A DNA stretch of 32,204 nucleotides from Fidelibacterota bacterium (lineage in GTDB: Bacteria; Fidelibacterota; Marinisomatia; Marinisomatales; UBA2128): positions 1-32,204 of the forward strand of contig JBHHUM010000024.1 of the NCBI GenBank assembly GCA_046861645.1. The letters run 5' to 3'. Position 1 is the first letter of the stretch. Every line of letters begins with the position of its first letter. A program made the position numbers and the translations under genes. Below, piece after piece: positions 5,978-31,971 of this stretch. The notes beneath the pieces are model-generated. The model saw only the letters and a list, made by a program, of their open reading frames with translations. It searched no databases and was not told where the DNA came from.

Positions 5978-6029
5978 AATGTGGGAATACTATCAAAGTA
6001 AATTCTTACTTCATGAAGGGGGATTAACT

Positions 6030-14967: not shown

Positions 14968-17745
14968 TTATTTTAAGTACACCATTTTTCTTACAGATCT
15001 GAACGATCCCATTTTCAAAACGTACAGGTAGGTTCCTGCACTTAAACCTGTAGCTTCGAATTGTATCTGATATGTACCTGCGACTTGGGTTCTATTCACC
15101 AGTGTAACCACTTCCCGACCTAATATATCGTACACTTTCAGACTTACAAATCCATCCTCAGGTAGTGTATAGGCGAGCGTTGTACTGGGATTGAAAGGAT
15201 TGGGGTAGTTCTGGTCCAAAGCAAAGTCTGTTGGAATAACCTCAAACTCAGGCTCACTTGACCACGCCATACGTTTAGAGTTTCCACCGGTTCCAGAGAG
15301 ATCAAAGAAACTGTCCAGAGTTAGATCAGCTTTCTTGTCTACTTTCACTTCTAAAGCCCAAAAGGCACCGGTAACTTCCGCTTCATTTTTAATTTCCAGT
15401 TTACTGTTTGGTGCATAGACGGAAGCAAAGATCTTGCCCTTCTTTTCAAACTTCACTTTATTCTCATCGTCATCATCACCAGATCCAATTCCAGCCACAT
15501 AGAAAATAATGTCAGAAGCATCGATGGCAGACCCATCCGCTGGACCCAAGTAAGCCTCCTTACCGGTCTCCAAATCCTCTTCTATCCGGACTTCCGAAGC
15601 ACTTTCTATTCGTAGTTTAGCCTTCTTCTTCAGCTTGATCTTTTGAACGTTATAGATACCCCCAGTGAAGGTCAGCTTGCCGTTATCTTTAACTTCTATT
15701 TTGCCATAATCTCCCGGTTCCAGATCGAGGGATTGGTTTTTACCCACGGTGATATTCTGGCTACCAGCCGGAGCCGACTTGAAGGGGGGAAGAGTGGTGA
15801 ACAAAGGGACACTCAAGGGAGTAAATTCACTTCCGTTGATGTCTCCTTTATTGTCAAGTTCATTGAAATAGACATCGCTGTCGATTTCGGTATCTTTCTT
15901 AACCTGGATTCGATTTGCCTTCAAGGCATATCCTCCAGCAATGGTGACTTTCTTGTCCACCTTAAGCTCAAATGCGTCATCATCCTCGTCATCATCATCA
16001 TCTTCATTTACAAGTACGTCATTGACCAACACATTACCGGAAAATACCTCTACTTCTTTTTTCAATTGAGCTCTGTTCAAGGCAAAGACAACGGTTTGTG
16101 CCAGATCCTCAACCACGTTAACAGTCACCGCAAAATCATCTTGGACACTTGCACCACAACTATCTTCCGCGGTAACCGTTACTACCGTTTCCCCGAAATC
16201 CACAGCTGAAACTGAAAGAACAGAACCTGATAATGCTGCAGAAGCTACATTATCGTCGGAATTGGATATTGAGAAACTCAATAAGTCCCCTTCTGCATCA
16301 GAAAAGACTGTATCCAGGTCTATCATTGCTGTAAGGTAACTATTACCGAAAGAGAGATCAAAATCAGCTACACCACTGGCTACTGATGGAGCAGAATTAG
16401 CATCAACTGTGACGACCACATCATCACTGGCTGTGCCTCCGTTGGCATCATCCACGGTTAATGTAAAAGTGTACGATCCTCCACCCAGCGATGTCGTGAA
16501 AGATGCGGCTGTTGAAACTTCTGAAATGCCGTCTGACCAGGAATAAGTGAGTACATCACCATCGGGATCAGAAGAATCTGAACCGTCCAACGTTACTGAT
16601 AGGCTACCAATTACACAGTCAAATGACTGGTCTAAACCGGCGTTGGCTACTGGAGTCTGGTTGCTTACATTCTCAGCAGGTTGCAGTTCAAACCCTTGAT
16701 CGGATATCATAGTTAATTCAACGCTATAATTTAATCCAACAATTCCACCCCAGTCTATTAATTGAACTGTAATTTCATTTAAACCCGTTTGCAGAGCTTG
16801 ATTGACCGTCAGGTCTGGCACAGGACCCCCGCCCTGTCCTATAACATCGGCAACTTGAATACCATTTATTGAAACAATTCCTTCATTATCAGCCTTCAGT
16901 TGAAATGTCATAGTAGGATTTGAAAAAGTTGAGGGTATGTAAAACTGAATACGATAATCTGTTGTGGTATTAATTCCTACAGTATTATCAGGATCAAAGT
17001 TTACCCAAGAGTTAGTACCTGGGACAAATCCCCAAGGATGCCACCCCGTCAGGTAGGCTGGTCCCCAGGTCACTCCGCCATCTGTAGATGCATCAATATA
17101 GGGATCTATATCACCTATATTTCCATTTCCTCCCAGCAATGTAAGGGTTTGTACTGTAGGAATGGGAGGGGTAATCGTCTGACCATTAAGGACAACATTT
17201 GCACTCTGTAAGTTATTCCCTACTGGACAGTCATCAACCTGAGTGACAACAACCCGGTTTTCACCTGTAACGATGTAACTTGCTAAGTCTGAAGTTCCAG
17301 TGCCTCCGAGATAAACGTAACTCCCTGGAACGACAATGCCACTCGGATAATCCGAATTGAAAATTGTAACCCGACCACCATCATCTATACCCGAGAATGC
17401 AATGGTGAATGTTGTAACAGTTGTATTAAGAGGTACTGTCACGAATGTTTGAAAATACGTGTAGTCTACAGACGATAGGCAGTTGCCTGGAAGGATAGAT
17501 GCTTCAGAAAACCCGATCGTTTCAGGATTTGGAGCAGGTTCCCAGTTGGGGTCGGTTGTAGGCGGGATAACAGCGTTGACGTATGCACTGTTCTCCCCAT
17601 GAAACGATAGTGTAAAACCAAGGTAGGACCAACCCAAGCCCCTGTTCATCTCCCAAGGTGTTCTGCTTACGCTTTGTGCCTGTAAAAAACTCATGGTGCT
17701 CAATATTATTAGACACATTAGTATTAAATATCGAGATGTTTTCAT
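14968..17745 (-). CDS. Large secreted multidomain lectin/adhesin-like protein with T9SS-type sorting domain
   Basis: AAGGAGG RBS and signal peptide. Two jelly-roll-like domains (IDDGGRV..GENRV; ADNEGIVSING..LQTGLNEI), a PKD domain (PVANAGLDQ..LDGSDSSDPDGDVLTYSW), a cadherin/Ig-like domain (DLDTVFSDAEGD), a probable beta-helix region and the tail DQNYPNPFNP..RKMVYLK. Confidence 0.85.
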   Translation of the reverse strand: MKTSRYLILMCLIILSTMSFLQAQSVSRTPWEMNRGLGWSYLGFTLSFHGENSAYVNAVIPPTTDPNWEPAPNPETIGFSEASILPGNCLSSVDYTYFQTFVTVPLNTTVTTFTIAFSGIDDGGRVTIFNSDYPSGIVVPGSYVYLGGTGTSDLASYIVTGENRVVVTQVDDCPVGNNLQSANVVLNGQTITPPIPTVQTLTLLGGNGNIGDIDPYIDASTDGGVTWGPAYLTGWHPWGFVPGTNSWVNFDPDNTVGINTTTDYRIQFYIPSTFSNPTMTFQLKADNEGIVSINGIQVADVIGQGGGPVPDLTVNQALQTGLNEITVQLIDWGGIVGLNYSVELTMISDQGFELQPAENVSNQTPVANAGLDQSFDCVIGSLSVTLDGSDSSDPDGDVLTYSWSDGISEVSTAASFTTSLGGGSYTFTLTVDDANGGTASDDVVVTVDANSAPSVASGVADFDLSFGNSYLTAMIDLDTVFSDAEGDLLSFSISNSDDNVASAALSGSVLSVSAVDFGETVVTVTAEDSCGASVQDDFAVTVNVVEDLAQTVVFALNRAQLKKEVEVFSGNVLVNDVLVNEDDDDDEDDDAFELKVDKKVTIAGGYALKANRIQVKKDTEIDSDVYFNELDNKGDINGSEFTPLSVPLFTTLPPFKSAPAGSQNITVGKNQSLDLEPGDYGKIEVKDNGKLTFTGGIYNVQKIKLKKKAKLRIESASEVRIEEDLETGKEAYLGPADGSAIDASDIIFYVAGIGSGDDDDENKVKFEKKGKIFASVYAPNSKLEIKNEAEVTGAFWALEVKVDKKADLTLDSFFDLSGTGGNSKRMAWSSEPEFEVIPTDFALDQNYPNPFNPSTTLAYTLPEDGFVSLKVYDILGREVVTLVNRTQVAGTYQIQFEATGLSAGTYLYVLKMGSFRSVRKMVYLK

Positions 17746-18304: not shown

Positions 18305-21300
18305 TTATGATAACTGTGAGATAAATTTATAGAGATTTTCTCCGGGTGCGAGTTTCAACTTTTTTCTTAATTGAGTGCGATATACTTCAATCGTTTTTAC
18401 GGCAAGGTTGGTTAAGCTGGCAATGTCTTTTGTATTCAGGTTGAGCTTTAAGAATGCACAGATTTTCATCTCTCGAGAAGTTAGTTCAGGATAATTCTCA
18501 GTAAGAATCTTAAAAAAGTTTTGATGAACTTCTTGAAACCACAACTCGAATTCATCCCATTCATGACCTGAACTAATCTGATAATTCAGTTTAGTAAGGA
18601 TATTTTTGATTCGTTTTTTATTATCATCATGACTTATCGAGTACAGGTTCTGAACCTCTTTAATGATATCAACTAATATTTCTCGATCATTGGCCATGTG
18701 CATGGCTTTAGTTGTTAATTCTTTATTTCTAGCTTCAAGATTTTCTTTTAACTTGTTTTCGAGTTCTTTTCTCTCAGTAATATCAGTCCAATATTCTATC
18801 ATTTGAACAACATTGTCGTCAGAATCAAAAATAGGGAATGCATTAATTTCCGCATAGACTGTTTTTCCATGCAGATCTACGTATTGTCGCTCGTAAGTGA
18901 CCAGCTGTTTGTTTTTCTTAACATCTGGTAGAGGACAATAGTGATTGGAATGATTGCAAGGTTCGTTATTATTAAAGAGTAGTGAATGACAAAACATTGC
19001 ACCAGATTTTACTCTTTTCATGGCGGCTGAATTTTTTAGTACTGTTTCATATGTATTTGCATCAATTACATAAAATGGCTGGGAAAGTGATTCGATGACA
19101 CTATTTAAAAATTGGTTTTGTCTTTCAATTTCTTTCTGATTATGCTGAATTTCTACGGTTCTTTCTAGTACCTGCCTTTCAAGGAGTGCTTTTTGTTTTT
19201 TTATCTGCTTCAGCCTTAATTGAATGGTAGTAAAGAAAAGGCCTAACAGTGCTAAAACATAAAAGGAATACGCCCACCATGTTTTCCAAAATGGGGGTAT
19301 TATTTTGATAGGTAAGGATATACCTGTTTTATTCCAAATACCATCATGGTTTGTACCTTTGACTTTAAATGTATAATTACCAGCAGGTAAATGGGTGTAA
19401 GTCGCAAATCGTTTAGATGCGTCTGTATATATCCAATTAGGGTCATAACCTTCCATTTTATATGCATATTTATTTTTCTCTGGGGCGGTAAAGCTTAGTG
19501 CTGAAAAAATGAAAGTAAAATCCCTGTCTTTATAGGATAATATAAGTTCATCTGTCTCAGTAATATGACTGTGAAGTATTGTGCCGCTTTCTAATGTCTC
19601 TCCAATCGGAACTGATTTACTGAATATTGTTAAATCAGTCAAAACAATTTCTGGGGCGATACTGTCATTTTGAACTTTTTCTGGAAAAAAAGCGTTCAAT
19701 CCCCCAATACCACCAAAAAACATTTCACCCGTCCAACTTTTATAATATGCTCCTGTGTTGAATTCATTATTTTGAAGCCCGTCGCGGATATCAAAATTTC
19801 TAAATGTCTCTTTTTCAGGATTAAACTTTGATATGCCATTATTAGTACTTAACCAAAGATTCTTTTTGGCATCCTCTAATATACCATATACCACATCGTT
19901 GGGGAGTCCATCTTTAACTGTGTAGTATTTAAATATTTGACTGTTATGATCGAATTTGTTCAATCCTCCGCTACTGGTACCAATCCAGATGATACCAGAT
20001 TGGTCCTGATAAATACACTTGATGCGATTATTACTTATAGTATTGGTATTTTGGGGATCATGGGTATAACGGACAAACGTTTCTGAATGGTTGTCAAAAC
20101 GGATTAAGCCGGATACTTCTGTTCCAAGCCATAAGAATCCATCCTGATCAATTATGATAGAATTGACCGTTATTTCACCCAAAAGAGAAGAATAATTAAC
20201 GAAATGCCCGTTCTTCATATTTTCATAAGATAATTGAGAGAGACCTTCTTCTGATCCAATCCATAGATTGCCATTTTTATCTAATAGTAATTCAAATATG
20301 AAATCTCCAGGGAGATTCGACGGATGATTATTATCACCGTAATGGGTAAAAATTTCCAGTTCCGGGTTAAAATGGTACAGACCACCCCCTTCAGTTCCTA
20401 CCCAAAGCATTCCGTCAATATCTCCAACGATAGAGTAAACATTTGTGTTTTGTAAACCATGGGGGTTTTCGGGATCAAATCCATAGTGAGTTGATTTGTA
20501 AGCTTTTCTATCAAACTTATCCAAGCCGCCGTAAGAACCAACCCAAAGGACACTGTCACGGCTTTCGTATATCGCTCGAATAATCGTACTGCTTAAGCTA
20601 TTTGAATCAGTAGAAATATGGGTATAGTTTTTGAATTTTGGAGTAAGAGTAAATCGGGCTAATCCAGATCCATTCGTTCCAACCCAAATGAGATTAGCAT
20701 TATCCCGATACAAGACGAGTATTCCACTCAAACTCAAACCAGATGAATTGTTTGAGTCATGTTGAATGTATTGATAAGATGTTGTTTTTGGATCAAAACG
20801 GAACATTCCTTTACCGCTTGCGCCAATCAAGAGAATTCCAGAATCGTCTTCTGTAATTGCAGTAACTTCTGTCAATTTCCCATCTAACAGAAGGGGAAAA
20901 TTTATAAGTTTTTTAATTCTACGATCAAACAGGTTCAACCCTATATTGGCCCCGATCCAGAGGTTGTTATAACTATCTTCCCAAATATACTGAATCCGGT
21001 TTTGGTCAGGTGTGGTTTGGGTATTTCCAATGGATAGAAAATTTTCAAAACTTTTTGTTTTAGAATTATATTGGCTCAAACCTCCTTTTTCTGTACCGAT
21101 CCAAAGAATATTGTTTTGATCTTTATACAAACACCGAATATGATCATCATTTAATTGATTTCCGGAAGAATGACTGATGTGAATAAATCGATTATTCTTA
21201 ATATCAAATAATTCTAAGCCATCTCCCCAGGTTCCGATCCATAGCCTACCATTTTTCTCTTCAGAGATAGCCCAAATGCGATTATTTGACAAACTATTGG

Positions 21301-21700
21301 TATCGGCAGGGTCATGGCGGTAACTCACAAAAGTTTCTTTTTTTCTATTAAACCGATTGAGTCCTCCATTCTCAGTGCCTATCCAAAGTGTTCCAGATTT
21401 ATCCTCATAGAGGCATCTAACGTAGTTATCAGAAATGGTGGTAGAATCAAAAGGATCATGTTTATAGATAGTAAAAGTATATCCATCATATTTATTTAAC
21501 CCATCCTGGGTGCCAAACCACAGATACCCTTTGCTGTCTTGCAAGATAGAATGGACTGTACTTTGAGATAATCCTTCATCGATGTTAATATGATCAAATT
21601 TGATGGAGGGAGTCTGAGCATAGAGGGGAGTTAGGAGGATATTTCCACCTAGCTGGAATAAAATTAAACCTGAAATGATGAATTTGTCTAGTTTTCTCAA
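18305..21700 (-). CDS. Membrane-spanning one-component regulator: Reg_prop beta-propellers + Y_Y_Y + TM + PAS + LuxR-type HTH
   Basis: GLSQSTV..QDSKGYLWFGTQDGLNKYDGY repeats; YAYKMEGYD..ATYTHLPAGNYTFKVKG; PPFWKTWWAY TM; PAS/PAC ending TDITERKELE; YPELTSREMKICAFLKLNLNTKDIA..VEVYRTQLRKKL. No H-box or receiver seen. Confidence 0.9.
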   Translation of the reverse strand: MRKLDKFIISGLILFQLGGNILLTPLYAQTPSIKFDHINIDEGLSQSTVHSILQDSKGYLWFGTQDGLNKYDGYTFTIYKHDPFDSTTISDNYVRCLYEDKSGTLWIGTENGGLNRFNRKKETFVSYRHDPADTNSLSNNRIWAISEEKNGRLWIGTWGDGLELFDIKNNRFIHISHSSGNQLNDDHIRCLYKDQNNILWIGTEKGGLSQYNSKTKSFENFLSIGNTQTTPDQNRIQYIWEDSYNNLWIGANIGLNLFDRRIKKLINFPLLLDGKLTEVTAITEDDSGILLIGASGKGMFRFDPKTTSYQYIQHDSNNSSGLSLSGILVLYRDNANLIWVGTNGSGLARFTLTPKFKNYTHISTDSNSLSSTIIRAIYESRDSVLWVGSYGGLDKFDRKAYKSTHYGFDPENPHGLQNTNVYSIVGDIDGMLWVGTEGGGLYHFNPELEIFTHYGDNNHPSNLPGDFIFELLLDKNGNLWIGSEEGLSQLSYENMKNGHFVNYSSLLGEITVNSIIIDQDGFLWLGTEVSGLIRFDNHSETFVRYTHDPQNTNTISNNRIKCIYQDQSGIIWIGTSSGGLNKFDHNSQIFKYYTVKDGLPNDVVYGILEDAKKNLWLSTNNGISKFNPEKETFRNFDIRDGLQNNEFNTGAYYKSWTGEMFFGGIGGLNAFFPEKVQNDSIAPEIVLTDLTIFSKSVPIGETLESGTILHSHITETDELILSYKDRDFTFIFSALSFTAPEKNKYAYKMEGYDPNWIYTDASKRFATYTHLPAGNYTFKVKGTNHDGIWNKTGISLPIKIIPPFWKTWWAYSFYVLALLGLFFTTIQLRLKQIKKQKALLERQVLERTVEIQHNQKEIERQNQFLNSVIESLSQPFYVIDANTYETVLKNSAAMKRVKSGAMFCHSLLFNNNEPCNHSNHYCPLPDVKKNKQLVTYERQYVDLHGKTVYAEINAFPIFDSDDNVVQMIEYWTDITERKELENKLKENLEARNKELTTKAMHMANDREILVDIIKEVQNLYSISHDDNKKRIKNILTKLNYQISSGHEWDEFELWFQEVHQNFFKILTENYPELTSREMKICAFLKLNLNTKDIASLTNLAVKTIEVYRTQLRKKLKLAPGENLYKFISQLS

Positions 21701-22116: not shown

Positions 22117-23469
22117 TTGATTACATTGAAGATATCTGGTATCAACATTTATTTTATCATTTCAGTTTTATATAGTGTAAGTATATCTCAAGACAATTTC
22201 ATCACTCAATCACAATCCGAAATAGATACCCTTAAGCAAACTATAGCTGATAAGGAACAGAATAAAGTTTCCCTCTACCATTTCGAGCAAAAGGATTCCA
22301 CCAAAGAGATACTCATAAACCTTTCAGGAGAGGAAATTCCTACAATAGATATTGAAACCGCAACTCATGTTCTGGCTAAGCCCTGGTACAGGAATATTGA
22401 CATTACTGGATTTGGAGGAACTGGTTTTCTGGATACAGGTGAAAAAGGAACCAGGCCTTACGGTGGGTTTCTAATTAAAGAAGCCTCTCTTTTCTTAGAG
22501 GGCGATGTTTGGGAGGATGTTACTTATTATCTTGAAATTCAAACAAACCGACTGGGAAAGGATAGCACTTTATTCATTCGTACCGGAGAGGTTTATATTC
22601 ATTTCTATGATGTTTTCAGGCAAATGGATCGGAGTTCAGTTGGACTTAAAATAGGAAGAATTGATGTTCCTTTCGGAGAAGAATACCTTTGGCAGGATGC
22701 CTCAGAGAATCCCTTAATTTCCAATTCTGCCGCATATCCTTATGGATTTGATGAAGGTATATTAATATACGGAAAGCTTTCAGGTCTTGGATGGATAATA
22801 GCTGTAACGGATGGTACTCAGGTACGAAGTTATGATGATCATTCAGACAAAGCATTCAATGTTAAAGTCTATGGGAATCTAAGGAAGGGACTTTATCTTA
22901 GTGCAAGCTTTATGGACAATGGTGAAGCCGGTATTAGTGCTGTCGAGTTTGGGGGTAGTCACTTTGAACCCGTAGGAGTAACTTATCAATCGAGTGCTGG
23001 CGTCTCCATTAGTGAAACGATAAGAGCACGGCTTTATGAAATAGATGTCCAGTATAGTATGGGAGAATCAATTGAATTTGTTCATTTATATTCGTCATTT
23101 GGAAAAGCATTCTTGATAGACAGTGATGAATCTTTCAGCCGGGATTGGAATTGGTTTGTGTTGGAACCATTTTTAAGTATTTATCAAAAAGGTTATTTTG
23201 TTGCCAGATACAGTGAGATTGGTACCTATGATTCAAAAAGTGGTTACCATTTTGAAGGTAAAACTACAGCAGGTGGGAAAGATGCTTTTGGTTATGATAT
23301 TAAACGATTCAGAAGGTTGTCCTGGGGACTGGGCTGGAAGCCTAACCCACATGTAACTTTTAAATTGGAAGTTGGTCGAGATTGGTTTGATTTAATTGAT
23401 CAATCGATTATTGATCCTCATAATAACAAAAGAAAGCTGATAGGGTTTGAAGTCGTAGCTCAATTTTAA
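22117..23469 (+). CDS. Outer-membrane beta-barrel protein (OprO/P-like porin)
   Basis: Signal-like N-terminus, short coiled coil, LKIGRIDVPFGEEY motif typical of this porin class, amphipathic strands and a C-terminal Phe (FEVVAQF). Confidence 0.8.
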   Translation: MITLKISGINIYFIISVLYSVSISQDNFITQSQSEIDTLKQTIADKEQNKVSLYHFEQKDSTKEILINLSGEEIPTIDIETATHVLAKPWYRNIDITGFGGTGFLDTGEKGTRPYGGFLIKEASLFLEGDVWEDVTYYLEIQTNRLGKDSTLFIRTGEVYIHFYDVFRQMDRSSVGLKIGRIDVPFGEEYLWQDASENPLISNSAAYPYGFDEGILIYGKLSGLGWIIAVTDGTQVRSYDDHSDKAFNVKVYGNLRKGLYLSASFMDNGEAGISAVEFGGSHFEPVGVTYQSSAGVSISETIRARLYEIDVQYSMGESIEFVHLYSSFGKAFLIDSDESFSRDWNWFVLEPFLSIYQKGYFVARYSEIGTYDSKSGYHFEGKTTAGGKDAFGYDIKRFRRLSWGLGWKPNPHVTFKLEVGRDWFDLIDQSIIDPHNNKRKLIGFEVVAQF

Positions 23470-23479
23470 TATAGAATAA

Positions 23480-24532
23480 ATGAGTCTATCTCCTAAAAAA
23501 CATCCAGTTATTACTTTTACATTAAGTATAGCTTTAAGTTTTTCTATCTGTATATCGTCTCAAGTTGAAGAGCTCCAAGAAAGTAATATCAACCCTATTA
23601 TGTTACAATTAAGTAATTCTATCATTGGAATACAGAAGGCTTTGACGAGAAGCGATAGAGAGGCGTTAATACCATATATAAACATAATGGTTAGTGCTAC
23701 CAATGAAATAGACATATTAGAGCCCCAGATTAATAAAAACCTGATGGATATATTCGACAATTATCGTAAAGATATTAAACAACTTGCTTCAGATTTGAAA
23801 TCCACTGTTAAGTCGAAATCCTTAAAGCAGGTGCATCTTGTTGTGAAAGAAATTCGGAAGACTTGTATTAGCTGCCATGTAATATTTCGGGAATTTACAA
23901 GTGACTACGATTTATTTCCCAGCATAGGAAATATTATTACAGGAAAAGTTAAGATTATCAAATATGATGGAAAAGCAAGATCGGATCTATCTGATGTAGT
24001 TGTTTTCATAGATCGAGTGTACAACCAAAAGACACAGATGATTACCAGAGATTACCCTTCGGTTTCACAAAAGGACCGTAAATTTGATCCCCGGGTACTT
24101 CCCATTCTAAAGGGGACTACAGTAGAATTTCCTAATGATGACTTAATATTTCACAATGTATTCTCTCTTTCAAAATGTAAACCATTTGATTTAGATGTCT
24201 ACCCACCAGGAACGTCTAAATACGTGACTTTCGATAAAACTGGTTGGGTGAAAGTTTATTGTAACATTCATCCTCAAATGGTATCTCATATAATTGTTCT
24301 TGATAATTCTTATTTCTCTATAACAAACAGGAGTGGTTTGTTTGTTATCCCAGATGTTCCCGATGGCGAATATACTTTAAGGGTCTGGTACGAATTTGGA
24401 TCCGATATACATAGAGAAATACAGTTGTCTGGACCTTCATTATTCAATACTTCCTTCTTAATAAATGAGGATAAGAAATTTATCCAGCATAGAAATAAGT
24501 TCGGTAAACCCTATCGTGGGAAGTACAAATGA
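23480..24532 (+). CDS. Periplasmic fusion: cytochrome c'-like helical heme c domain + cupredoxin/carboxypeptidase-regulatory-like domain
   Basis: Signal peptide; helical ~110-aa domain ending in CISCH (23864-23878). Then QKDRKFDPRVLPILKGTTVEFPNDDLIFHNVFS and YCNIHPQM (His..Cys-x2-His-x2-Met type-1 Cu ligand set), and VPDGEYTLRVW. Confidence 0.85.
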   Translation: MSLSPKKHPVITFTLSIALSFSICISSQVEELQESNINPIMLQLSNSIIGIQKALTRSDREALIPYINIMVSATNEIDILEPQINKNLMDIFDNYRKDIKQLASDLKSTVKSKSLKQVHLVVKEIRKTCISCHVIFREFTSDYDLFPSIGNIITGKVKIIKYDGKARSDLSDVVVFIDRVYNQKTQMITRDYPSVSQKDRKFDPRVLPILKGTTVEFPNDDLIFHNVFSLSKCKPFDLDVYPPGTSKYVTFDKTGWVKVYCNIHPQMVSHIIVLDNSYFSITNRSGLFVIPDVPDGEYTLRVWYEFGSDIHREIQLSGPSLFNTSFLINEDKKFIQHRNKFGKPYRGKYK

Positions 24533-27018
24533 TTAAGGCAACAATAAGAGTTAAGTACTTTCTTGCTATTTTTGTGGTTTCCTTTATCTTCATTCTGATA
24601 TCAGTAATTGTTATGAATATTTTTCTTTCCCGATTGGCCATGAATGAAATTACTCAAGGTCTGCGAAGTGGAGTATTAGCCTTTGAGCGTTTTGCCGCAC
24701 TTAGAGATGATTTGTTAGCAAATCAGGCCAGATCTATATCCCAAACTCCCCACCTGAAAGCTGTTATGAACATTCCAGATGTGGATTCTAAAACAGTTTA
24801 TTACACTGCTAGAGAACTCTATGATATTAACAATATAGATTTAATGCTTTTAATTGATGATGAAGGAAAACTTATTGCAGATGCAGAAGATACACTCAAT
24901 TATGGTAGTGATATGACTTCATTCCCAGGTGTTTTGAATGGATTAGATGGTATAGAGTATAATGGTATATACAGCTATAAAGGTGACCTTTATTTGGTTG
25001 CTCTTACCCCTGTTGTAATTGGTAAACAGTTACTGGGATTATTGATTATAGGGGATCGAATTGATTCTACAACAGCAGAGGATATTCGAGAATTCACCGG
25101 TAGGGATGTCTTGTTAGTTTACTCTCAAATGATTATTTCACAATCTAACCAAAACAAGGCATTTTTATCCGTAAACCAGAATGAGTTGACAACACTGTTG
25201 GACCACTTTCAAACATTTAATTCCCCATTTTATTGTACTTTAGGAGAAAAAGACTGTTTAGCTGTTGTCATATCCCTCAAAAGTTCAGGTGGATATACAG
25301 TATTATTCAGAGCTCTTGATGAAGTGAACAGTGTTTTGACGGTTGCTAAGATCTCATTATTGGGAGCTGGAGGAGCCACCATTCTTTTAGCAGCAATATT
25401 AAGTTTCTGGCTTTCAGCTCGGGTCAGTAGACCCATTCTAAATCTGAGGGATGCAGTCAGACAATTTGGAGCGGGAAAACTTGATCAGCGTATTACTGTG
25501 CCTTCACAAGATGAGCTGGGACAGTTATCGAGCGCCTTTAATAAAATGGCCGAAGATATTCACTCTGCCAGAAAAGCTTTAGAATCAGAAAGAGACTATG
25601 TTCACAGTATTCTGCATTCCATGATTGAAATGCTGATTGTACTTAATCCTGATGGAAAAATTCGTGCAGTCAATCAAGCAGCAGTGAAGTCACTTCATTA
25701 TTCGGAAAGTGAGCTGGTTGGAAGATCTTTTCAAACTATCATCTATTCCGCCAGGGAAGCTTCAGAAAAAAAACCTCTAAAGGACATTTGGGAGACTCTC
25801 ATTAAGAATCGCTTCGTGCGTGATATTGAAGGAGTACTCCTATCAAAAGAAAATAGAGAGATCCCGGTGATCATCTCATGTTCGGTTATGAGTGATAATC
25901 AGGATAGAATCCAAGGTGTTGTTTGCGTTGCTCAAGATATTAGTGTAAGAATAGAGGCTGAGAAAGACATTCGTAAGTTGTCCGTGGCAGTAGAGCAGAG
26001 CCCAAGTGCAGTTGTGATTACTGATATTGATGGAAATATTAATTATGTAAATCCCAAATTCGAAAAAGTATCAGGATATATGGCTGAGGAGGTGTTAGGA
26101 AAGAATCCTCGGATTCTAAAATCGGGTAAGCAGCCACGGGAGTATTACAAGGAACTATGGGATACTATTAAATCTGGGAAAGAATGGCGGGGAGAATTCT
26201 GTAACCGTAAAAAGAATGGTGACATATTCTGGGTTCATGCATATGTTTCACCCATCATTGATGGGGAAGGTAATATCACTAATTTTCTTTCTGTTCAGGA
26301 AGATATTACTGAGCGCAAACGATCGGAAAAACTTCTGGAGAATTCTCAAAAACAGTTACAAGCCTTATCATCCCACATACAACGCTTACAGGAGGACGAG
26401 CGAGCCCGGATTGCCCGAGAAATTCACGATCAATTGGGACAATCATTAACTGGTATGAAGATGGATCTAGCCTGGTTGAAAGATGAACTACCTGAAAAAT
26501 ACAAACCCCTGATTGATAGTATTATAGATCTGGCGAATTCAACAATGACTTCGGTACGTAAGATTTCCACCCAGTTAAGACCTGGAGTTTTGGATGATTT
26601 AGGTTTGATGGCGGCAATTGATTGGCAGGTAGAAGAATTTCAAGAACGATCTGGAATAGAATGCGACTTACGTATCGATTCAGAAGATATTACTATTGAT
26701 CACGATAGGTCTACGGCAATATTCAGGATTTTACAGGAAGCTTTGACGAACGTGCTGCGACACGCAGACGCTAGCAAAGTGATAATTTCTTTGAGTGTGA
26801 AAGATGGGATACTACAGATGAAAGTTGTTGATAATGGAAAAGGAATACATAAGACTCAAGTTAACGATAGAAAATCTTTAGGATTACTTGGCATGAAAGA
26901 GCGCCTTCTTCCCTGGGGCGGTAGGTTTAAGATTGGTAGTGTCAATGGTTCTGGGACAATTGTGAATGTATGGTTACCTCTAATAAATGAGCAATCTACT
27001 CCTGAAGTGAAGGTTTAA
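24529..27018 (+). CDS. Sensor histidine kinase (periplasmic Cache-like, HAMP, 2x PAS, HisKA_3, HATPase_c)
   Basis: Two TMs; DELGQLSSAFNKM (HAMP); two PAS/PAC domains; RIAREIHDQLGQ H-box; LRPGVLDDLGL; QEALTNVLRHA; DNGKG; LGLLGMKER. Start overlaps the upstream stop (ATGA). Confidence 0.95.
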   Translation: MIKATIRVKYFLAIFVVSFIFILISVIVMNIFLSRLAMNEITQGLRSGVLAFERFAALRDDLLANQARSISQTPHLKAVMNIPDVDSKTVYYTARELYDINNIDLMLLIDDEGKLIADAEDTLNYGSDMTSFPGVLNGLDGIEYNGIYSYKGDLYLVALTPVVIGKQLLGLLIIGDRIDSTTAEDIREFTGRDVLLVYSQMIISQSNQNKAFLSVNQNELTTLLDHFQTFNSPFYCTLGEKDCLAVVISLKSSGGYTVLFRALDEVNSVLTVAKISLLGAGGATILLAAILSFWLSARVSRPILNLRDAVRQFGAGKLDQRITVPSQDELGQLSSAFNKMAEDIHSARKALESERDYVHSILHSMIEMLIVLNPDGKIRAVNQAAVKSLHYSESELVGRSFQTIIYSAREASEKKPLKDIWETLIKNRFVRDIEGVLLSKENREIPVIISCSVMSDNQDRIQGVVCVAQDISVRIEAEKDIRKLSVAVEQSPSAVVITDIDGNINYVNPKFEKVSGYMAEEVLGKNPRILKSGKQPREYYKELWDTIKSGKEWRGEFCNRKKNGDIFWVHAYVSPIIDGEGNITNFLSVQEDITERKRSEKLLENSQKQLQALSSHIQRLQEDERARIAREIHDQLGQSLTGMKMDLAWLKDELPEKYKPLIDSIIDLANSTMTSVRKISTQLRPGVLDDLGLMAAIDWQVEEFQERSGIECDLRIDSEDITIDHDRSTAIFRILQEALTNVLRHADASKVIISLSVKDGILQMKVVDNGKGIHKTQVNDRKSLGLLGMKERLLPWGGRFKIGSVNGSGTIVNVWLPLINEQSTPEVKV

Positions 27019-27072
27019 TATTCAAAATGATGATAATATTGAGTTATTTTACTATTGAGGATATAGTCTGGT

Positions 27073-27723
27073 ATGATTAGGATATTTGTTTTGGATGATC
27101 ATGCTATAATCCGAGAAGGATTACAACGCATTATCTCAAAGACCAATGATATAAAAATTGTAGGAGAAGCCGGGGATGCCAAAGAAATTATCAAGAAGGT
27201 AGTGAATCGTGAATGGAAAGTGGATATAGTACTACTGGATATCACACTTCCTGGCAGAAGCGGTATAGAAGTGATGAATGAACTAAAAGCCATTAGACCC
27301 GAGTTACGTTTCCTTGTTCTTAGTATACATCCCGAAGATCAGTATGCAATTAGGGCTCTCAGATCAGGTGCTTCAGGGTATATGACGAAGGATAGCGCAC
27401 CTGAACAATTAGTCGGAGCTATTCGAAAAATCTTTTCAGGAGGAAAGTATATCAGTCCCAGTCTTGCTGAGAGACTGGCCAGTTATGTTCGACAAGATTA
27501 TGATAGACCTGTTCATGAAACCCTTTCCAACCGGGAATTTCAGGTAATGTGCATGATTGCTTCTGGGAAGACAGTCTCTGAAATTGCTAAAGAATTGACT
27601 CTAAGCGTAAAAACTATCAGTGCTTATAGATCTAAAGTATTAGAAAAAATGAACATGAAAACAAATGCTCAACTGACTTTGTATGTTCTTCAGAAGAAAC
27701 TGACAGATTGGTCAGCTGTATAG
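27073..27723 (+). CDS. NarL/FixJ-family response regulator (REC + LuxR HTH)
   Basis: LDDHAIIREGL, LLDITLPGRSG, GASGYMTK, LSNREFQV...LSVKTISAYR. Confidence 0.96.
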   Translation: MIRIFVLDDHAIIREGLQRIISKTNDIKIVGEAGDAKEIIKKVVNREWKVDIVLLDITLPGRSGIEVMNELKAIRPELRFLVLSIHPEDQYAIRALRSGASGYMTKDSAPEQLVGAIRKIFSGGKYISPSLAERLASYVRQDYDRPVHETLSNREFQVMCMIASGKTVSEIAKELTLSVKTISAYRSKVLEKMNMKTNAQLTLYVLQKKLTDWSAV

Positions 27724-27820
27724 TAGAGAATTCTCTTACAATATATCCATAAATTATAAGACAAAATCCTTAGTTAAAAGTAGGTACAGTCTTATGTAAA
27801 AAATCGGATACGTCTGATTT
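27723..27820. promoter_or_regulatory. Array of imperfect palindromes, candidate NarL/RcsB-type operator sites
   Basis: AGAGAATTCTCT (27725-36), TAAGA-caaaa-TCCTT (27757-71), TAGGT-acag-TCTTA (27781-94) and AAATCGGA-tacg-TCTGATTT (27801-20). The last three are centred about 23 bp apart. Confidence 0.55.
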
Positions 27821-27911
27821 TCAATACTAAACTCTTAGCGTACATTATCCTAGAAGCTCTTTTCCAGCTAAAGTACATACAAAATGAGATTGATTGCTAT
27901 GAAATCACATA

Positions 27912-28292
27912 ATGAAAGTAATAGTTGTAGATGATTCAGAAATCGTCCGGAAGAGAATAGATAACATGTTGTCAAAACTGGAAGGAGTTGAAAACGTATT
28001 TGTCGTGAGTAGTCGTAACGAAGCCATTGCAATGCTTGGAAAACGAAAGTTAGATGTGGCTATCATCGATATTCACCTCCCTGAGGGTAGTGGAATAGAA
28101 CTCTTGAAGTATATCAAAAAATATTTTCTGAATATGAAGGTAATTATGCTCTGTAATTCCGCTTTAATCCAATATCGTAAAATATGTTATGAAAGCGGTG
28201 CTGACTTCTTTTTCGACAAATCATCTGAATTCGAGGAAGTAAGTAAGCTCCTTCTTCGGATAAGTGATACAAAACCCCAAAACTCAACTTAA
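27912..28292 (+). CDS. Stand-alone receiver-domain response regulator
   Basis: VVDDS, IIDIHLPEGSG (phospho-Asp), GADFFFDKS; no output domain. Confidence 0.92.
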   Translation: MKVIVVDDSEIVRKRIDNMLSKLEGVENVFVVSSRNEAIAMLGKRKLDVAIIDIHLPEGSGIELLKYIKKYFLNMKVIMLCNSALIQYRKICYESGADFFFDKSSEFEEVSKLLLRISDTKPQNST

Positions 28293-28310
28293 TTGAAAGG
28301 AGTTCATACC

Positions 28311-29435
28311 ATGAAATGGAAATATCAAAAGCCCCTAGGTTTTTTAATAGTCTCGTTGAGTTTATTCTATGGTTGTGAAGGACCTCAAGGACCAGCAGGC
28401 GAACCTGGAGCTAACGGTAGTGATGGTGTCGATGCTACTGCACTACCACCCGCTAACACTTTTTTCAGTTTAGCTGTAAATAATAATGCTGGAGATATGC
28501 AATTTGGATCATTTGTCAATTATTTGGCTTTCGATTCAATCGATGCTGAGATTTCAGTAAATTATCCTGATGCTCCTCAGGTAGTGTCCTATAAAACCCC
28601 TTTACCTCCAGAAATTGACGGTACTGAAGCCGAAGGTGAATGGATAGGAAGTGGAGCTACTATCTCCCTCGAACTGATCGAGGAATTTGAGAAATATGAT
28701 GGAATAGATCCACCAGGTGTAACCTCGGTAAATGTTAAGGCCATGTATGATGAGTTATATGTTTACTTTCAGCTTTCATGGAATGATGCTGATGAAAGTG
28801 ATGAATTAAGCAAACTTGAATATAATAGTGCGACTGGTTGGAGTAGTTCAGGGAATGAGGATCGATTTTACTTTCATTGGCCAATTACTGGCTTTCCCGA
28901 CACTGATTTTGCCGATGGGAATGGCTGTGATGCCTTCTGTCATTTCGACACTAATGCCGCTAATGGAAAAGGTTATATGTTTACAGAATTTCCAGATCAG
29001 TTAGTAGATACCTGGCAATGGAAAGCTTGTCGTTCCAATCCTAAAGGCTACGTTCATGATAAACACTTGATTTACCAGGATGAAGCTAATTTAGTTGACT
29101 TAACAACTAAATGGAGTGGACGTAAGGGAGATCAGGGGAATGATCCCTATATTGAAAATAAATTACAAAGTACTGGGTTTCCTAAATATATGCACATCAA
29201 TGATCCCAATGCTAACGCCGGTTATCCGTCATTCACATATGAAATGATACCCTTCGATACGTCTGCTTTATTTAATGATGGGGCGACGATTCCAGGGATT
29301 TTTCTGAGAGATCCGAACGGAAGCGGAGCTGATGTCCATGCAAAGGGTATATATTCCGATAACGGTTGGGTTGTTGAACTCAAACGTCTTCGAAATACTG
29401 GTCATGGTGATGATCATCAGTTTCTTCCAGAATAA
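28311..29435 (+). CDS. Lipoprotein with collagen-like linker and ethylbenzene-dehydrogenase gamma-like (EB_dh) heme domain carrying CX3CH
   Basis: AAGGAG RBS before ATG 28311; lipobox FYGC; six G-X-Y triplets (28380-28433). Domain motifs PPEIDG..EW, VKAMYD..VYFQLSWND, EDRFYFHWP, GCDAFCH, DTWQWKA and GWVVELKRLRNTG..DD.QF. Confidence 0.82.
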   Translation: MKWKYQKPLGFLIVSLSLFYGCEGPQGPAGEPGANGSDGVDATALPPANTFFSLAVNNNAGDMQFGSFVNYLAFDSIDAEISVNYPDAPQVVSYKTPLPPEIDGTEAEGEWIGSGATISLELIEEFEKYDGIDPPGVTSVNVKAMYDELYVYFQLSWNDADESDELSKLEYNSATGWSSSGNEDRFYFHWPITGFPDTDFADGNGCDAFCHFDTNAANGKGYMFTEFPDQLVDTWQWKACRSNPKGYVHDKHLIYQDEANLVDLTTKWSGRKGDQGNDPYIENKLQSTGFPKYMHINDPNANAGYPSFTYEMIPFDTSALFNDGATIPGIFLRDPNGSGADVHAKGIYSDNGWVVELKRLRNTGHGDDHQFLPE

Positions 29436-29493
29436 TCATTCTGTAAAATTAGTAGAATATGGAAATGCTAATTATGAATCCTAATAACGGGGA

Positions 29494-30444
29494 ATGGGGA
29501 AAACGCGAATAGCGGTTTTAAGCTATTTATACACGGTAGGGGCATTCTGTGTATTTGGGTTTTTATCTGCCCAGAATGTCCCTTATTCTAATTTCCTAAG
29601 TGGTGAAAATACTTATATTTCCTATTGTGCACCATGTCATGGAGTTAGGGGTGATGGCCACAGCCCGGCGGCAAGAGCAATGTCTCCATCTCCCCGAGAT
29701 TTTTCCTCAGGATTGTACAAATTCAGGTCGACCCTATCAGGATCTTTACCTACCGATGATGATTTAATATTGTCTATAAGTAACGGACTACCAGGCACTT
29801 GGATGCCTAGTTGGAAAGGTGTTCTTTCTGATGAGCAAATTGAAGACGTAACTGCTTATATAAAAACTCTCTTGAACAGTGAGCAGAAGTGGAAACAATC
29901 GGAGTCTCTACCCTCACTTTCATATAACCCTCCTTTGGCTTCATCAGAATTATTGAGGGATGGTAGAGGATTTTATCTGTTACTTGAATGCTGGACTTGT
30001 CATGGTTTGGATGGAAAAGGAAATGGACCCTCAGCAATGGCTTTGAAAGATAGTAAAAACAAGCCAATTAAACCTACAAACTTAACGGAGAAAAAATATC
30101 GTGCAGGTACTTCAGTTACAAATATTCGAAAAACGATTCTGACTGGTCTTACAGGTACACCGATGCCAAGCTACAAGGATCTTTTCCTTTTGGCTAAGGA
30201 GGATATTAATGAAATAGAGTTTTCGAAAGATTTACCACACTCCAGTAGAGAGATTTTTCACAGTTTTGTTTCACAACTTCCTTCAAATACTGAATTGAAC
30301 AGTCTGACTGAAGAAATGATTACAGAACTTTCAATCAGGAATGAGTGGGCATTAGCATATTATGTACGTTCTCTAATAAAGAAAGAAAGTTGGTACGATT
30401 GGTTGTTTAGATCTAATCCAGAGGATGTACAACTTTCTGAATAG
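29494..30444 (+). CDS. Periplasmic diheme c-type cytochrome
   Basis: Signal peptide; CAPCHG (29626) with PRDFSSGLYKFRST..GSLPTDDDL..GLPGTWMP; CWTCHG (29989) with P-x-NLT..GLTGTPMPSY. Two His/Met class I domains. Confidence 0.92.
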   Translation: MGKTRIAVLSYLYTVGAFCVFGFLSAQNVPYSNFLSGENTYISYCAPCHGVRGDGHSPAARAMSPSPRDFSSGLYKFRSTLSGSLPTDDDLILSISNGLPGTWMPSWKGVLSDEQIEDVTAYIKTLLNSEQKWKQSESLPSLSYNPPLASSELLRDGRGFYLLLECWTCHGLDGKGNGPSAMALKDSKNKPIKPTNLTEKKYRAGTSVTNIRKTILTGLTGTPMPSYKDLFLLAKEDINEIEFSKDLPHSSREIFHSFVSQLPSNTELNSLTEEMITELSIRNEWALAYYVRSLIKKESWYDWLFRSNPEDVQLSE

Positions 30445-30913
30445 TAAGATTAATCTTTTTCTCTTTACAACATGTTTAATATTCTTGATTACATGTGTAG
30501 GTGATGGTGTAGGTCTGGATGAGTTTGGAAATCCTATCGCTCCTGAAGATTCGACAGATTCTACGGGTAATGGTGATAATGGTTCAACAGGTCTGAGAGC
30601 AACGCTTAGTAGCATTCAGACGAATATATTTGATCAAATCTGTGCTGTCAAGTGTCATAAATCACCCCGGCCTAAAAAGAATCTTAATTTGGAGACGGGA
30701 AAAGCTTATGATAATCTTGTAGATATTCCGAGTAAAGAGATACCGGCAATGATGCGTGTTCTGCCAGAAGATTCAGAAAATAGCTATATCATCTGGAAAT
30801 TAGAGGGGCGTGATGGTATAAATGGGAAGCAAATGCCTCTGAATCAGACACCCTTAGAAGATAATCAGATTCAGGTTATCCGAGATTGGATCGATGCAGG
30901 AGCATTGCCATGA
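30425..30913 (+). CDS. Monoheme cytochrome c lipoprotein (planctomycete cytochrome c-like), atypical CX3CH
   Basis: Lipobox LITC; acidic Gly/Ser/Thr linker; IQTNIFDQICAVKCH; RVLPEDSENSYIIWKL; QMP..L..QI..IRDWIDAGA. Confidence 0.8.
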   Translation: MYNFLNSKINLFLFTTCLIFLITCVGDGVGLDEFGNPIAPEDSTDSTGNGDNGSTGLRATLSSIQTNIFDQICAVKCHKSPRPKKNLNLETGKAYDNLVDIPSKEIPAMMRVLPEDSENSYIIWKLEGRDGINGKQMPLNQTPLEDNQIQVIRDWIDAGALP

Positions 30914-31971
30914 AATGGAGAATAATGAAAATTATCTTCGTCTTTTTCATCCTATTACACATCCGATCAATTTATGCTGAACCGTACATTGCCATTCGTA
31001 CCGGATTTAAATGCAGTCAATGTCATGTAAATTTAACTGGAGGCGGGAAACGAACTGACTTAGGGAACATTTTCACTTTAAAATTTCTTCCCTTTCATTT
31101 CATAAAAACATCCCAACCTGTGATATTTTCTCCACAGCTTTCCCGTACTGTCTCTGTTGGTGCTAATCTGCGTATTTATAACTCAATTACCTATGGATAT
31201 ATCGATACGTCTGGAATACTGACTCCAGATGATTATTTATTAGACATAACCGAGGGTAATATTTACATGGAAGTCAGATTGATACCGGAAGTATTGACGC
31301 TATACTTTGATCAGATGGTAAGTCCTAACCCCGGTAATAGAGAAGCCTTTGGTATTTTACAAGGTCTACCATTTAATGGATACATTAAAACCGGTAAAAT
31401 TCTCCTTCCTTATGGACTGAGGCTATGGGATGATAATGTCTTTATCAGGGAAGCAACAGGTTTCAACTACTCATCACCAGAATTAGCTGGAGAAATGGGA
31501 TTTGAACCTGGAAATTTCTCGATAAGTTCTGCTATTACAAGCGATCAGTTTTCTGGTCTAGCTTATTGGATTCGAAAACATGGAAGAGTTGGATTCTCTT
31601 GGCAAAAAGCGACTGATGGGTCGAAACTTTTTATGTTAGGTTCTTTTGTGGGTTTCCATGCAGGTCGATTTACTTTTCTGAGTGAATTGGATCGTATTCA
31701 ATTTTCTAACATAAAACAGCAGGTCTATTTTGCGGAGTTGGATTTTTTATTGGTTCGTGGTAGTAATTTCAAGTTATCATACAATCTACTCGATAGAAAC
31801 CTTAATGTACCTATAGATCGAGATGGACAGGAAAGAATTACCCTGGGATGGGAAGTCTTTCCGATTCAATTTTTTCAATTTTCAATATATTATCATTTTA
31901 ATCGCTTTATTCCACAAAATATCTCTTTAAATCGAGATATGTTGGAGATAGAATTACATTTTTTCTTTTGA
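30910..31971 (+). CDS. Cyc2-like monoheme cytochrome c / outer-membrane beta-barrel fusion
   Basis: Signal peptide ending IYA|EPYIAIRTGFKCSQCH (heme motif 31012-31026), then GGGKRTDLGNIF. Followed by amphipathic strands (YIKTGKILLPYGLR) and the C-terminal beta signal LEIELHFFF. Start is ATG 30910 (overlapping the upstream stop) or 30925 (GGAG RBS). Confidence 0.8.
   Translation: MKWRIMKIIFVFFILLHIRSIYAEPYIAIRTGFKCSQCHVNLTGGGKRTDLGNIFTLKFLPFHFIKTSQPVIFSPQLSRTVSVGANLRIYNSITYGYIDTSGILTPDDYLLDITEGNIYMEVRLIPEVLTLYFDQMVSPNPGNREAFGILQGLPFNGYIKTGKILLPYGLRLWDDNVFIREATGFNYSSPELAGEMGFEPGNFSISSAITSDQFSGLAYWIRKHGRVGFSWQKATDGSKLFMLGSFVGFHAGRFTFLSELDRIQFSNIKQQVYFAELDFLLVRGSNFKLSYNLLDRNLNVPIDRDGQERITLGWEVFPIQFFQFSIYYHFNRFIPQNISLNRDMLEIELHFFF

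Follow-up and report, generated by a model that had tools for sequence, protein, structure and literature searches.

Cyc2 is the main genetic marker that is used for inferring microbial iron oxidation from genomes. In this work, we describe a cluster of nine genes (g1 to g9, 22117-31971) on a contig of a Fidelibacterota bacterium (GenBank JBHHUM010000024.1, assembly GCA_046861645.1). The last gene, g9, encodes a fused cytochrome-porin that we read as a member of a sister family of Cyc2, outside Cyc2 as published. The window that was analysed is this one whole contig of 32,204 bp (C78 of genome G000). Keffer et al. describe Cyc2 as a porin of at least 365 amino acids (aa) that has the motif AXPXFAR[Q/K][T/Y] ahead of CXXCH and PXL behind it, and take OprP and OprO (2o4v and 4rjw) as the Cyc2 templates (PMC8406198). 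The gene order of the rus operon is given as cyc2-cyc1-cup-coxBACD-rus in another report (PMC10654088). With slightly better than even confidence, we interpret the nine genes as a two-module respiratory-type cluster, in which an outer-membrane-to-periplasm conduit of the Cyc2 kind would work under two-component control with inward electron flow and Fe(II) as the best-guess donor. The nine open reading frames (ORFs) and the conserved non-coding blocks between them are as follows.

22117..23469, forward strand: g1, exported porin of the OprO/OprP-like type, extended at its N-terminus by about 60-85 aa (atlas features and structure)
23480..24532, forward strand: g2, exported protein in which a putative class-II (c556/c'-like) haem c domain is fused to a type-1 copper cupredoxin and a CarboxypepD_reg-like sandwich (Pfam, all below cut-off)
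24529..27018, forward strand: g3, membrane sensor histidine kinase with CHASE4 (periplasmic), HAMP, two PAS, HisKA_3, and HATPase_c domains (Pfam)
27073..27723, forward strand: g4, NarL/LuxR-type response regulator with REC and GerE helix-turn-helix domains (Pfam Response_reg 4.6e-24, GerE 7.7e-17)
27755..27824, forward strand: conserved non-coding blocks TATAAGACAAA (27755-27765) and GTCTGATTTTCAA (27812-27824) in the 188-nt gap between g4 and g5, common to four orthologous loci
27912..28292, forward strand: g5, receiver-only response regulator that directly abuts g6 (Pfam Response_reg 1.1e-20)
28293..29435 (likely start ATG 28311), forward strand: g6, lipoprotein in which an EB_dh-fold haem domain is accompanied by a Gly-X-Y linker (Pfam EB_dh)
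29494..30444, forward strand: g7, exported dihaem cytochrome c (two CXXCH; Pfam Cytochrome_CBB3 and Cytochrom_C)
30425..30913, forward strand: g8, small FoxE/PSCyt1-like lipoprotein monohaem cytochrome (profile match to FoxE)
30886..31971 (likely start ATG 30910), forward strand: g9, fused monohaem cytochrome and 16-strand porin (motif conservation, AlphaFold2 (AF2) model, and Foldseek)

An earlier note on this DNA, made from the sequence, had described nine co-oriented and tightly packed genes, and the ORF coordinates bear this description out. The overlaps are 4 nt between g2 and g3 (24529-24532), 20 nt between g7 and g8 (30425-30444), and 4 nt between g8 and g9 if ATG 30910 is the start of g9, the longest ORF of which begins at TTG 30886. 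The two beta-barrels of that note (g1 and g9), its single type-1 copper ligand set (g2), and its kinase with two response regulators (g3, with g4 and g5) were all recovered by the structural, alignment, and domain analyses given below. Its count of six haem c motifs in five exported proteins stands if CX3CH is counted but not for CXXCH alone, as there are four CXXCH (CISCH in g2, CAPCH and CWTCH in g7, and CSQCH in g9) and two CX3CH (CDAFCH in g6 and CAVKCH in g8). The CXXCH content of the cluster is beyond chance because only 32 of the 1772 six-frame ORFs of at least 150 aa in the whole genome have the motif.

The g9 protein has 353 aa from ATG 30910, which is also the start of the database copy, and 361 aa from TTG 30886. 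Its hydrophobic leader, taken as a signal peptide by inspection, ends with IYA before EP, and its single CSQCH is found at residue 43 in the numbering of the long ORF. Twenty g9 relatives exhibit the N-terminal consensus EPYxAxRTGxKCSQCHVNxTGGGKR, and the residues E32, P33, R38, G40, C43, C46, H47, N49, GGG52-54, and R56 and the C-terminal FF are invariant among them. The AF2 model of g9 exhibits 16 strands with a pLDDT of 74, and its haem region is of low confidence. Foldseek with this model placed OprP (2o4v) at rank 1 and OprO (4rjw) at rank 12. No family for g8 or g9 was found in Pfam or NCBIfam, and phmmer with g9 against the PDB sequences returned nothing meaningful.

The g9 family consists of 357 proteins and 376 genome loci. 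The synteny counts in this work were taken from the best 80 of these 376 loci; g9 was kept by the ORF selection in 75 of them, and many loci are cut by contig ends. At 50% identity, the number of g9 clusters is 1711 (E<=1e-3), 888 (E<=1e-10), or 297 (E<=1e-30). The g9 profile matches 95 of the 301 genomes in the phylum sample, nine of them at E<=1e-100.

Compared with the published description of Cyc2, g9 exhibits a signal peptide (by eye), a single N-terminal CXXCH, and a predicted 16-strand OprO/OprP-like porin. Several observations weigh against its assignment to Cyc2 itself. In place of the Cyc2 motif, g9 reads AEPYIAIRT, and a loosened regular expression of the motif matches none of the 75 g9-family ORFs; 10 other ORFs in the same 80 loci are matched by it. 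PXL is absent after CXXCH, where g9 has HVNLTGGGKR with GGG invariant in all 20 relatives. The length of 353-361 aa is below the threshold of 365 aa. The profile comparisons also link g9 to Cyc2 only distantly. The g9 family aligned to Cyc2-motif proteins with an hhalign probability of 94.8%, which spans only 63 C-terminal columns; the hidden Markov model of g9 gives E<0.01 for only four of 17 Cyc2-motif proteins; and the comparison with the Cyc2 family from the clusters gives only 74.8%. All these barrels have a porin fold, and therefore part of the signal between g9 and Cyc2 may be generic.

The Cyc2-motif proteins were obtained from genomes by a back-translated pattern, and the similarity tests were run against 17 of them. 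The pattern with a gap of three residues from [T/Y] to the first Cys gave 20 matches in 15 of 151 genomes (L153-L172) and 0 control matches, and the pattern with a gap of five residues gave one non-motif match in 401 genomes. The proteins that were found read AVPSFARQTGxxCxxCHTxxPxL and have 419-511 aa. The spacing from motif to CXXCH is three residues in these proteins, as against the text of PMC8406198, which puts the motif five residues upstream of CXXCH. The N-terminus of g9, AEPYIAIRTGFKCSQCH, exhibits a spacing equal to that of the Cyc2-motif proteins (AVPSFARQTGxxCxxCH).

A clearer link was found through an intermediate group in Marinimicrobia that reads ALPRFAxxxGxxCxxCH and includes a g9 paralogue on contig C180 of the same genome. 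The g9 family matches this group at 100% (E 5e-47) in the profile comparison, and the group in turn matches the Cyc2-motif proteins at 96.7% (E 3.5e-10) in an alignment of 327 columns that brings the haem motifs into register. We read g9 as belonging to a sister family of Cyc2 because it departs from the published description and its direct link to Cyc2 is weak, whereas the link through the intermediate group is clearer. The Cyc2-like barrel of the earlier note thus stands as Cyc2-like in architecture, fold, and distant profile similarity, but not as Cyc2 proper in motif, PXL, and length.

The gene order around g9 is conserved, and in this respect the linkage of the effector genes that had been proposed for this locus is well supported. 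The g8 gene is found directly upstream of g9 (position -1) in 56 of the 75 loci, and g7 is found at position -2 in 32 of them. Synteny of the trio g7-g8-g9 extends over at least eight phylum-level groups. The full order from g1 to g9 is kept in two loci (L005, which is G222, and L007) at 42-78% protein identity. This conservation largely refutes a chance assembly of nine neighbours that do no joint work, which we consider highly improbable; the three start/stop overlaps and the spread of g7-g8-g9 over many phyla also speak against it. In favour of chance, one genome (G115) parts the two halves, and the scans of the window for sigma-70 promoters (39 against 36.9 expected) and terminators (7 against 6.0 expected) stay at the chance level and thus speak neither for nor against an operon.

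The relatives exhibit several layouts. In Gemmatimonadota, the order is a kinase, a sigma-54 regulator, a g2-like cupredoxin, a porin of 416-495 aa, a receiver, a cupredoxin, g7, g8, g9, a g2-like protein, a bd-like oxidase, and further cytochromes. That porin has the canonical Cyc2 motif, for example IPAFARKYRTSCSTCHTAAPKLN, and matches the Cyc2-motif proteins at 99.9% in the profile comparison. A survey of Gemmatimonadota mentions 'Cyc2' homologues in metagenome-assembled genomes that appear among the g9 loci here (PMC11316326). In L006 (Marinimicrobia), the order is a g2-like protein, Cyc2, a kinase, a sigma-54 regulator, EB_dh, g7, g8, and g9. In L001, where g9 is 62% identical, EB_dh-g7-g8-g9 has a HEAT protein, a Rieske protein, a cytochrome b, and a multihaem cytochrome directly upstream and a Cyc2 variant (PAFGRKY) directly downstream. 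Two other Marinimicrobia genomes (G047 and G199) have g7-g8-g9, a Big_2 protein, a g2-like protein, a COX2-cytochrome, and COX1. Canonical-motif Cyc2 is found beside the g9 module in 10 of the 80 loci (five by the strict and five by the loosened motif), in addition to the variant in L001. Downstream of g9 in L014, L016, L019, L024, L053, and L075 (Fibrobacteria and others), radical SAM/SPASM proteins and Usp proteins with PCP_red recur after the bd-like oxidase.

The three cytochromes upstream of g9 are also conserved. The g8 profile matches both haem domains of the iron oxidase FoxE (5mab), its closest solved relative, with a total E of 7.2e-9 (0.013-0.015 for the single domains). The two proteins align at the haem motif, at the RMP Met, and at the WIxxGA end, g8 having one domain and, in this lineage, CX3CH. 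The same profile also matches the C-terminal haem domain of the hydrazine synthase alpha subunit. The residues C73, C77, H78, M137, and W155 and the WI..GA element of g8 are invariant, and a haem motif, CX3CH or CXXCH, is found in 21 of 21 sequences. The haem motif (30641-30658) is CX3CH in Marinimicrobia, including the paralogue on C180, and CXXCH in Gemmatimonadota, Fibrobacteria, KSB1, and others.

The g7 protein matches PDB 6h5l_B with an E of 1.2e-46, a chain that we take to be the dihaem partner of a Kuenenia HAO-like enzyme. A preprint confirms only that 6H5L is a Kuenenia HAO. No match of g7 to Cyc1 or Cyc41 chains was found in the PDB search at E<=0.01. The g6 protein matches Pfam EB_dh (PF09459) at 87.0 bits, above the gathering threshold of 33.3, and its closest solved relative is NxrC (7b04_C, E 2e-5). 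C212, C216, and H217 (CX3CH), M229, and K244 of g6 are invariant in 10 of 10 sequences, and this CX3CH suggests a covalently bound haem.

These genes would form the following path. Module B (g5-g9) would act as an outer-membrane-to-periplasm electron conduit, in which the g9 haem would oxidise a soluble extracellular reductant, for which Fe(II) is the best guess, and electrons would flow inward. The g8 protein would be the periplasmic partner of g9, and the dihaem g7 and the EB_dh haem lipoprotein g6 would pass the electrons on. The acceptors would be a Rieske/cytochrome b complex and a haem-copper oxidase that are encoded on other contigs of the same genome. Module A (g1-g4) would be the control part, with the g3 kinase and the g4 regulator beside the g1 porin and the g2 haem/copper carrier, and the cue that g3 reads may be a solute that has entered through g1 or the redox state in which g2 is found. 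The layout of the module mirrors the rus operon because its neighbours in the relatives are Cyc2, cupredoxins, oxidases, and Rieske/cytochrome b. The earlier note had proposed that 28311-31971 forms an outer-membrane-to-periplasm wire with a Cyc2-like barrel; the architecture, the fold, the distant profile similarity, and the strong synteny agree with this wire, but the published criteria do not give it a Cyc2 identity.

The genome of the contig has 2.5 Mb in 184 contigs and is 94% complete. Besides the System I ccm genes on C113, it has two bc complexes (on C165 and C67) and COX1, which support the conduit. The other electron-transfer loci of the genome are as follows.

C180, 7762-10270 (L081): a PSCyt1 cytochrome with a tail of the type IX secretion system (T9SS), a g8 paralogue (CX3CH), a g9 paralogue (PRLAVQNGVSCITCH), and a small CytoC_RC-like dihaem protein
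C165, 306-15996, reverse strand (L083): in its first part, a PAS kinase, a sigma-54 regulator, a motif-type Cyc2 (433 aa, PSFSRKY...CSTCH...PKLN), a g2-like cupredoxin, and another cupredoxin; in the rest, a Fer4_5 membrane protein, a COX2-like cupredoxin-cytochrome, an FAD/Fe-S oxidoreductase, a Rieske protein, a cytochrome b, a multihaem cytochrome, and a cytochrome c
C67, 6103-14999 (L082): a HEAT protein, a Rieske protein, a split cytochrome b, a 1002-aa multihaem cytochrome, then a g2-like cupredoxin, an Rrf2 regulator, and COX1
C167, 29-7437 (L085): a 4Fe-4S protein, an NrfD-like membrane protein, two cytochromes c, a second EB_dh protein (same CX3CH), a 420-aa protein of no assigned family, an MtrC-like multihaem protein, and a PSCyt1 cytochrome

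The genome therefore has three different cytochrome-porins, namely g9, its paralogue on C180, and the motif-type Cyc2 on C165. The C180 module is kept at 64-73% identity in a genome of the same genus (L103). The genes on C67 are 39-88% identical to those directly upstream of EB_dh-g7-g8-g9 in L001. The bd-like oxidase, the 335- and 429-aa cupredoxins, and the Usp-PCP_red proteins of the other phyla gave no tblastn match in this genome at E<1e-6.

Other observations count against an inward conduit that is fed by Fe(II). Canonical-motif Cyc2 is often found in the g9 cluster, and g9 may therefore act otherwise than Cyc2. RuBisCO was not found in the genome at its 94% completeness, and lithoautotrophy is therefore not indicated. 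The window lacks a quinol-linked enzyme, and the contig end hides what follows g9. The contig stops 233 bp past g9, and the cluster may therefore be truncated. The earlier note had reported no catalytic Mo/Fe-S subunit, quinol oxidoreductase, or cytochrome maturation gene in this stretch; none was found among the 12 other window ORFs that were scanned, three of which have no family match. For the quinol oxidoreductase, the statement is true of the window but not of the L001 relative with its Rieske/cytochrome b genes.

The same hardware could be run outward. In this case, electrons from quinol would pass through a bc-type complex, g7/g6, and g8 and leave by way of g9, and their acceptor, for example Fe(III) or Mn(III/IV) complexes or a different oxidant, would be extracellular or accessible from the pore. 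The Rieske/cytochrome b/multihaem complex directly upstream of EB_dh-g7-g8-g9 in L001 and the two such complexes in the genome would suit this direction, and a Marinimicrobia bacterium without RuBisCO fits heterotrophic respiration; nothing in the sequence fixes the direction. However, many modules of the relatives adjoin terminal oxidases (bd-like, COX1) and blue-copper proteins, which is a donor-oxidising layout as in the rus operon, and among characterised proteins, the nearest relatives are the Fe(II) oxidases Cyc2 and FoxE. Outward flow is rather unlikely in our judgement.

A use of the cluster outside energy metabolism, namely a two-component-switched system of redox homeostasis or metal handling that would oxidise or reduce reactive species, Fe, or Cu at the envelope and serve for uptake or detoxification in vent fluids, was also considered. 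Near-identical DNA was found only in runs labelled hydrothermal vent metagenome from one study, with no RNA run among them, and this origin of the contig DNA fits such a use. So do the missing carbon-fixation marker, the tie of the g1 porin and the g2 haem/copper protein to a kinase, and the lack of a membrane energy-coupling enzyme in the window. It is nevertheless quite improbable, as the relatives repeatedly exhibit synteny with bc complexes and terminal oxidases and the several dedicated carriers in a fixed order go beyond the needs of a detoxifying oxidase. The inward conduit under two-component control is therefore kept as the preferred reading.

The control part of that reading begins with g1 and g2. 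The g1 porin scores 18.9 bits (E 9.5e-4) against Pfam Porin_O_P, below the cut-off of 20.9, and it resembles the Porin_O_P clusters of the atlas by features (0.97) and structure (TM 0.70-0.72). It has no C..CH haem motif. A derivation of g1 from Cyc2 by loss of the haem was considered and rejected, with hhalign probabilities of 1.5-6.6% against Cyc2-type barrels from a four-sequence g1 alignment, which is a rough negative control. Orthologues of g1 were found in five of the 301 phylum genomes.

The N-terminal domain of g2 scores 18.7 bits against Pfam Cytochrom_C_2, below the cut-off of 26.5, and PF01322 is precomputed on several relatives; its middle domain scores 19.7 bits against Copper-bind, just under the cut-off of 21.2. 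The haem-site residues M41, C129, C132, and H133 and the type-1 copper ligands H225, C261, H264, and M267 (C-x2-H-x2-M loop) are each invariant in 26 of 26 full-length relatives. The copper ligands are also kept in 33-34 of the 36 g2-like proteins of related loci. There are 2234 relatives of g2, some of which are named 'plastocyanin/cytochrome c556' by the Joint Genome Institute (JGI), and the g2-like copper-domain relatives adjoin bc complexes and oxidases. A five-coordinate cytochrome c' gas sensor was rejected for g2 because of the invariant Met41. Because the Met-His haem and the type-1 copper site are invariant and the relatives adjoin bc complexes and oxidases, g2 looks like a periplasmic electron carrier rather than a small-ligand sensor. 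The redox or small-ligand sensor that had been proposed for g1-g2 is hence not supported.

A broader form of that proposal is that g1 and g2 form an extracellular sensor, in which g1 would admit a solute or redox signal, and g2 would read this signal and pass it on to the kinase. The two genes are adjacent in all five genomes that have g1, the kinase is next in all four where the contig goes on, the stop of g2 overlaps the start of g3, and other phyla have a pair of Cyc2 and cupredoxin in the same place by a kinase and a regulator. On the other side, the invariant Met41 is a likely sixth ligand as in c556, unlike a five-coordinate gas binder; g2-like cupredoxins also adjoin bc complexes and oxidases with no kinase nearby; and the g3 kinase has CHASE4 and PAS sensing domains of its own. 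We regard such a sensor as possible but doubtful, and g2 remains a likely carrier beside the kinase in the preferred reading.

The g3 and g4 proteins fit a two-component system of the NarL class, with every domain above its Pfam cut-off. The second PAS of g3 aligns to residues 8-134 of NifL (the N-terminal PAS) with an E of 4e-30, which hints at cytoplasmic redox sensing. A receiver-only gene is found ahead of the effector genes, in the same place as g5, in L005, L007, L015, and L021. The 188-nt gap between g4 and g5 is the largest in the cluster. TATAAGACAAA and GTCTGATTTTCAA are each found once in the window, other near-matches being at chance level, and we infer from their conservation that they could serve g5-g9 as an operator or promoter.

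Two-component genes with differing classes of regulator are found next to the module in Marinimicrobia, Gemmatimonadota, KSB1, and others. In other phyla, the place of g1-g2 is taken by a canonical-motif Cyc2 and a cupredoxin. In G115, the unit of g1, g2, and kinase is followed by further regulators, and no g6-g9 were found within the approximately 13 kb of downstream sequence that was fetched. This also counts against a single conduit-and-switch unit, and because of it, the halves g1-g4 and g5-g9 are separable modules. The proposed link of a two-component switch to the conduit is therefore upheld by the recurrence of such genes beside the modules in several phyla, but it is loosened by G115.

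The remaining features of the window are consistent with its taxonomic origin. T9SS C-terminal sorting tails are found on three window proteins:

5913-8144: penicillin amidase-like protein with a T9SS sorting domain
8963-10369: LVIVD repeat protein with a T9SS sorting domain
14968-17745: PKD protein with a T9SS sorting domain

The best matches of the cluster proteins are named Candidatus Marinimicrobia or Neomarinimicrobiota. The tails and these matches therefore indicate a genome of the Fibrobacteres-Chlorobi-Bacteroidetes (FCB) type, in agreement with the earlier note. A 1131-aa regulator (Reg_prop/Y_Y_Y propeller, PAS, and LuxR helix-turn-helix) is encoded on the reverse strand at 18305-21700, divergent from g1, and it is not kept beside g1 in G180 or G115.

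A wider interpretation is put forward tentatively. The g8-g9 pair could represent a second, unrecognised lineage of cytochrome-porins, for which a FoxE-like lipoprotein would be an obligate partner and which is missed by the Cyc2 motif and length filters. Its range covers at least eight phylum-level groups, with the superfamily in about one third of the sampled Marinimicrobia. In this lineage, the haem-less OprP-like porin g1 and the haem-copper fusion g2, which would replace Cyc2 and the cupredoxin by the kinase, could be a split cytochrome-porin that serves as an extracellular redox probe for the kinase, and the kinase would switch the conduit on. If this is true, surveys based on markers undercount outer-membrane electron exchange. 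The g9 family fails the Cyc2 filters, yet its gene order ties it to cytochromes, blue-copper proteins, bc complexes, and oxidases. Abundant deep-sea heterotrophs, Marinimicrobia among them, would be added to the organisms suspected of outer-membrane electron exchange. As a fixed pair, g8 and g9 are a concrete and expressible two-protein target for biochemistry, and the recurring two-component linkage offers a handle on pathway switching, which is little understood. The novelty that had been claimed for the combination is supported by the literature searched, in which no description of the family or of the combination was found.

Compared with the known systems, g6 shares the EB_dh fold with EbdC and NxrC, the gamma subunits of type II dimethyl sulfoxide reductase enzymes, of which NxrC is the best solved relative. 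It differs from them in that no catalytic Mo or Fe-S subunits are found near it and in that it is a lipoprotein, has a Gly-X-Y linker, and exhibits CX3CH as an invariant motif. MtrAB, MtoAB, PioAB, and PCC share with this locus the concept of a barrel and a separate periplasmic cytochrome as a trans-outer-membrane wire. They have a 26-strand barrel and a deca- or multihaem cytochrome, whereas a 16-strand barrel with its own haem and a monohaem partner are found here. The g8 domain aligns with both haem domains of FoxE of Rhodobacter ferrooxidans SW2 (PDB 5mab). In contrast to FoxE, g8 has one domain instead of two, is a lipoprotein, has CX3CH in Marinimicrobia, and is paired with an outer-membrane barrel; foxY and foxZ were not seen among the genes annotated, and no search was aimed at them.

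The Acidithiobacillus ferrooxidans rus operon and this locus both have an outer-membrane cytochrome-porin, a periplasmic dihaem cytochrome, and a blue-copper protein, and a terminal oxidase is found in the clusters of the relatives. Unlike the rus operon, the window has no oxidase, and it has the extra EB_dh and FoxE-like haem proteins and an embedded two-component system. Cyc2 (Acidithiobacillus, Mariprofundus PV-1, and Leptospirillum Cyt572) and g9 both exhibit a signal peptide, one CXXCH near the start of the mature protein, an OprP/OprO-like barrel of 16 strands, and an aromatic residue at the C-terminus. Both also exhibit the upstream motif spacing A-x-P-x-hydrophobic-A-x-x-x-G-x-x-C, and both are encoded beside a dihaem cytochrome, cupredoxins, and oxidases. 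The g9 protein differs from Cyc2 in that FAR[QK][TY] is absent (IAIRT), PXL is replaced by an invariant GGG-K/R loop, and the protein is shorter (353-361 aa). It also differs in that a near-obligate FoxE-like lipoprotein gene lies directly upstream and in that it often shares its cluster with a canonical-motif Cyc2.

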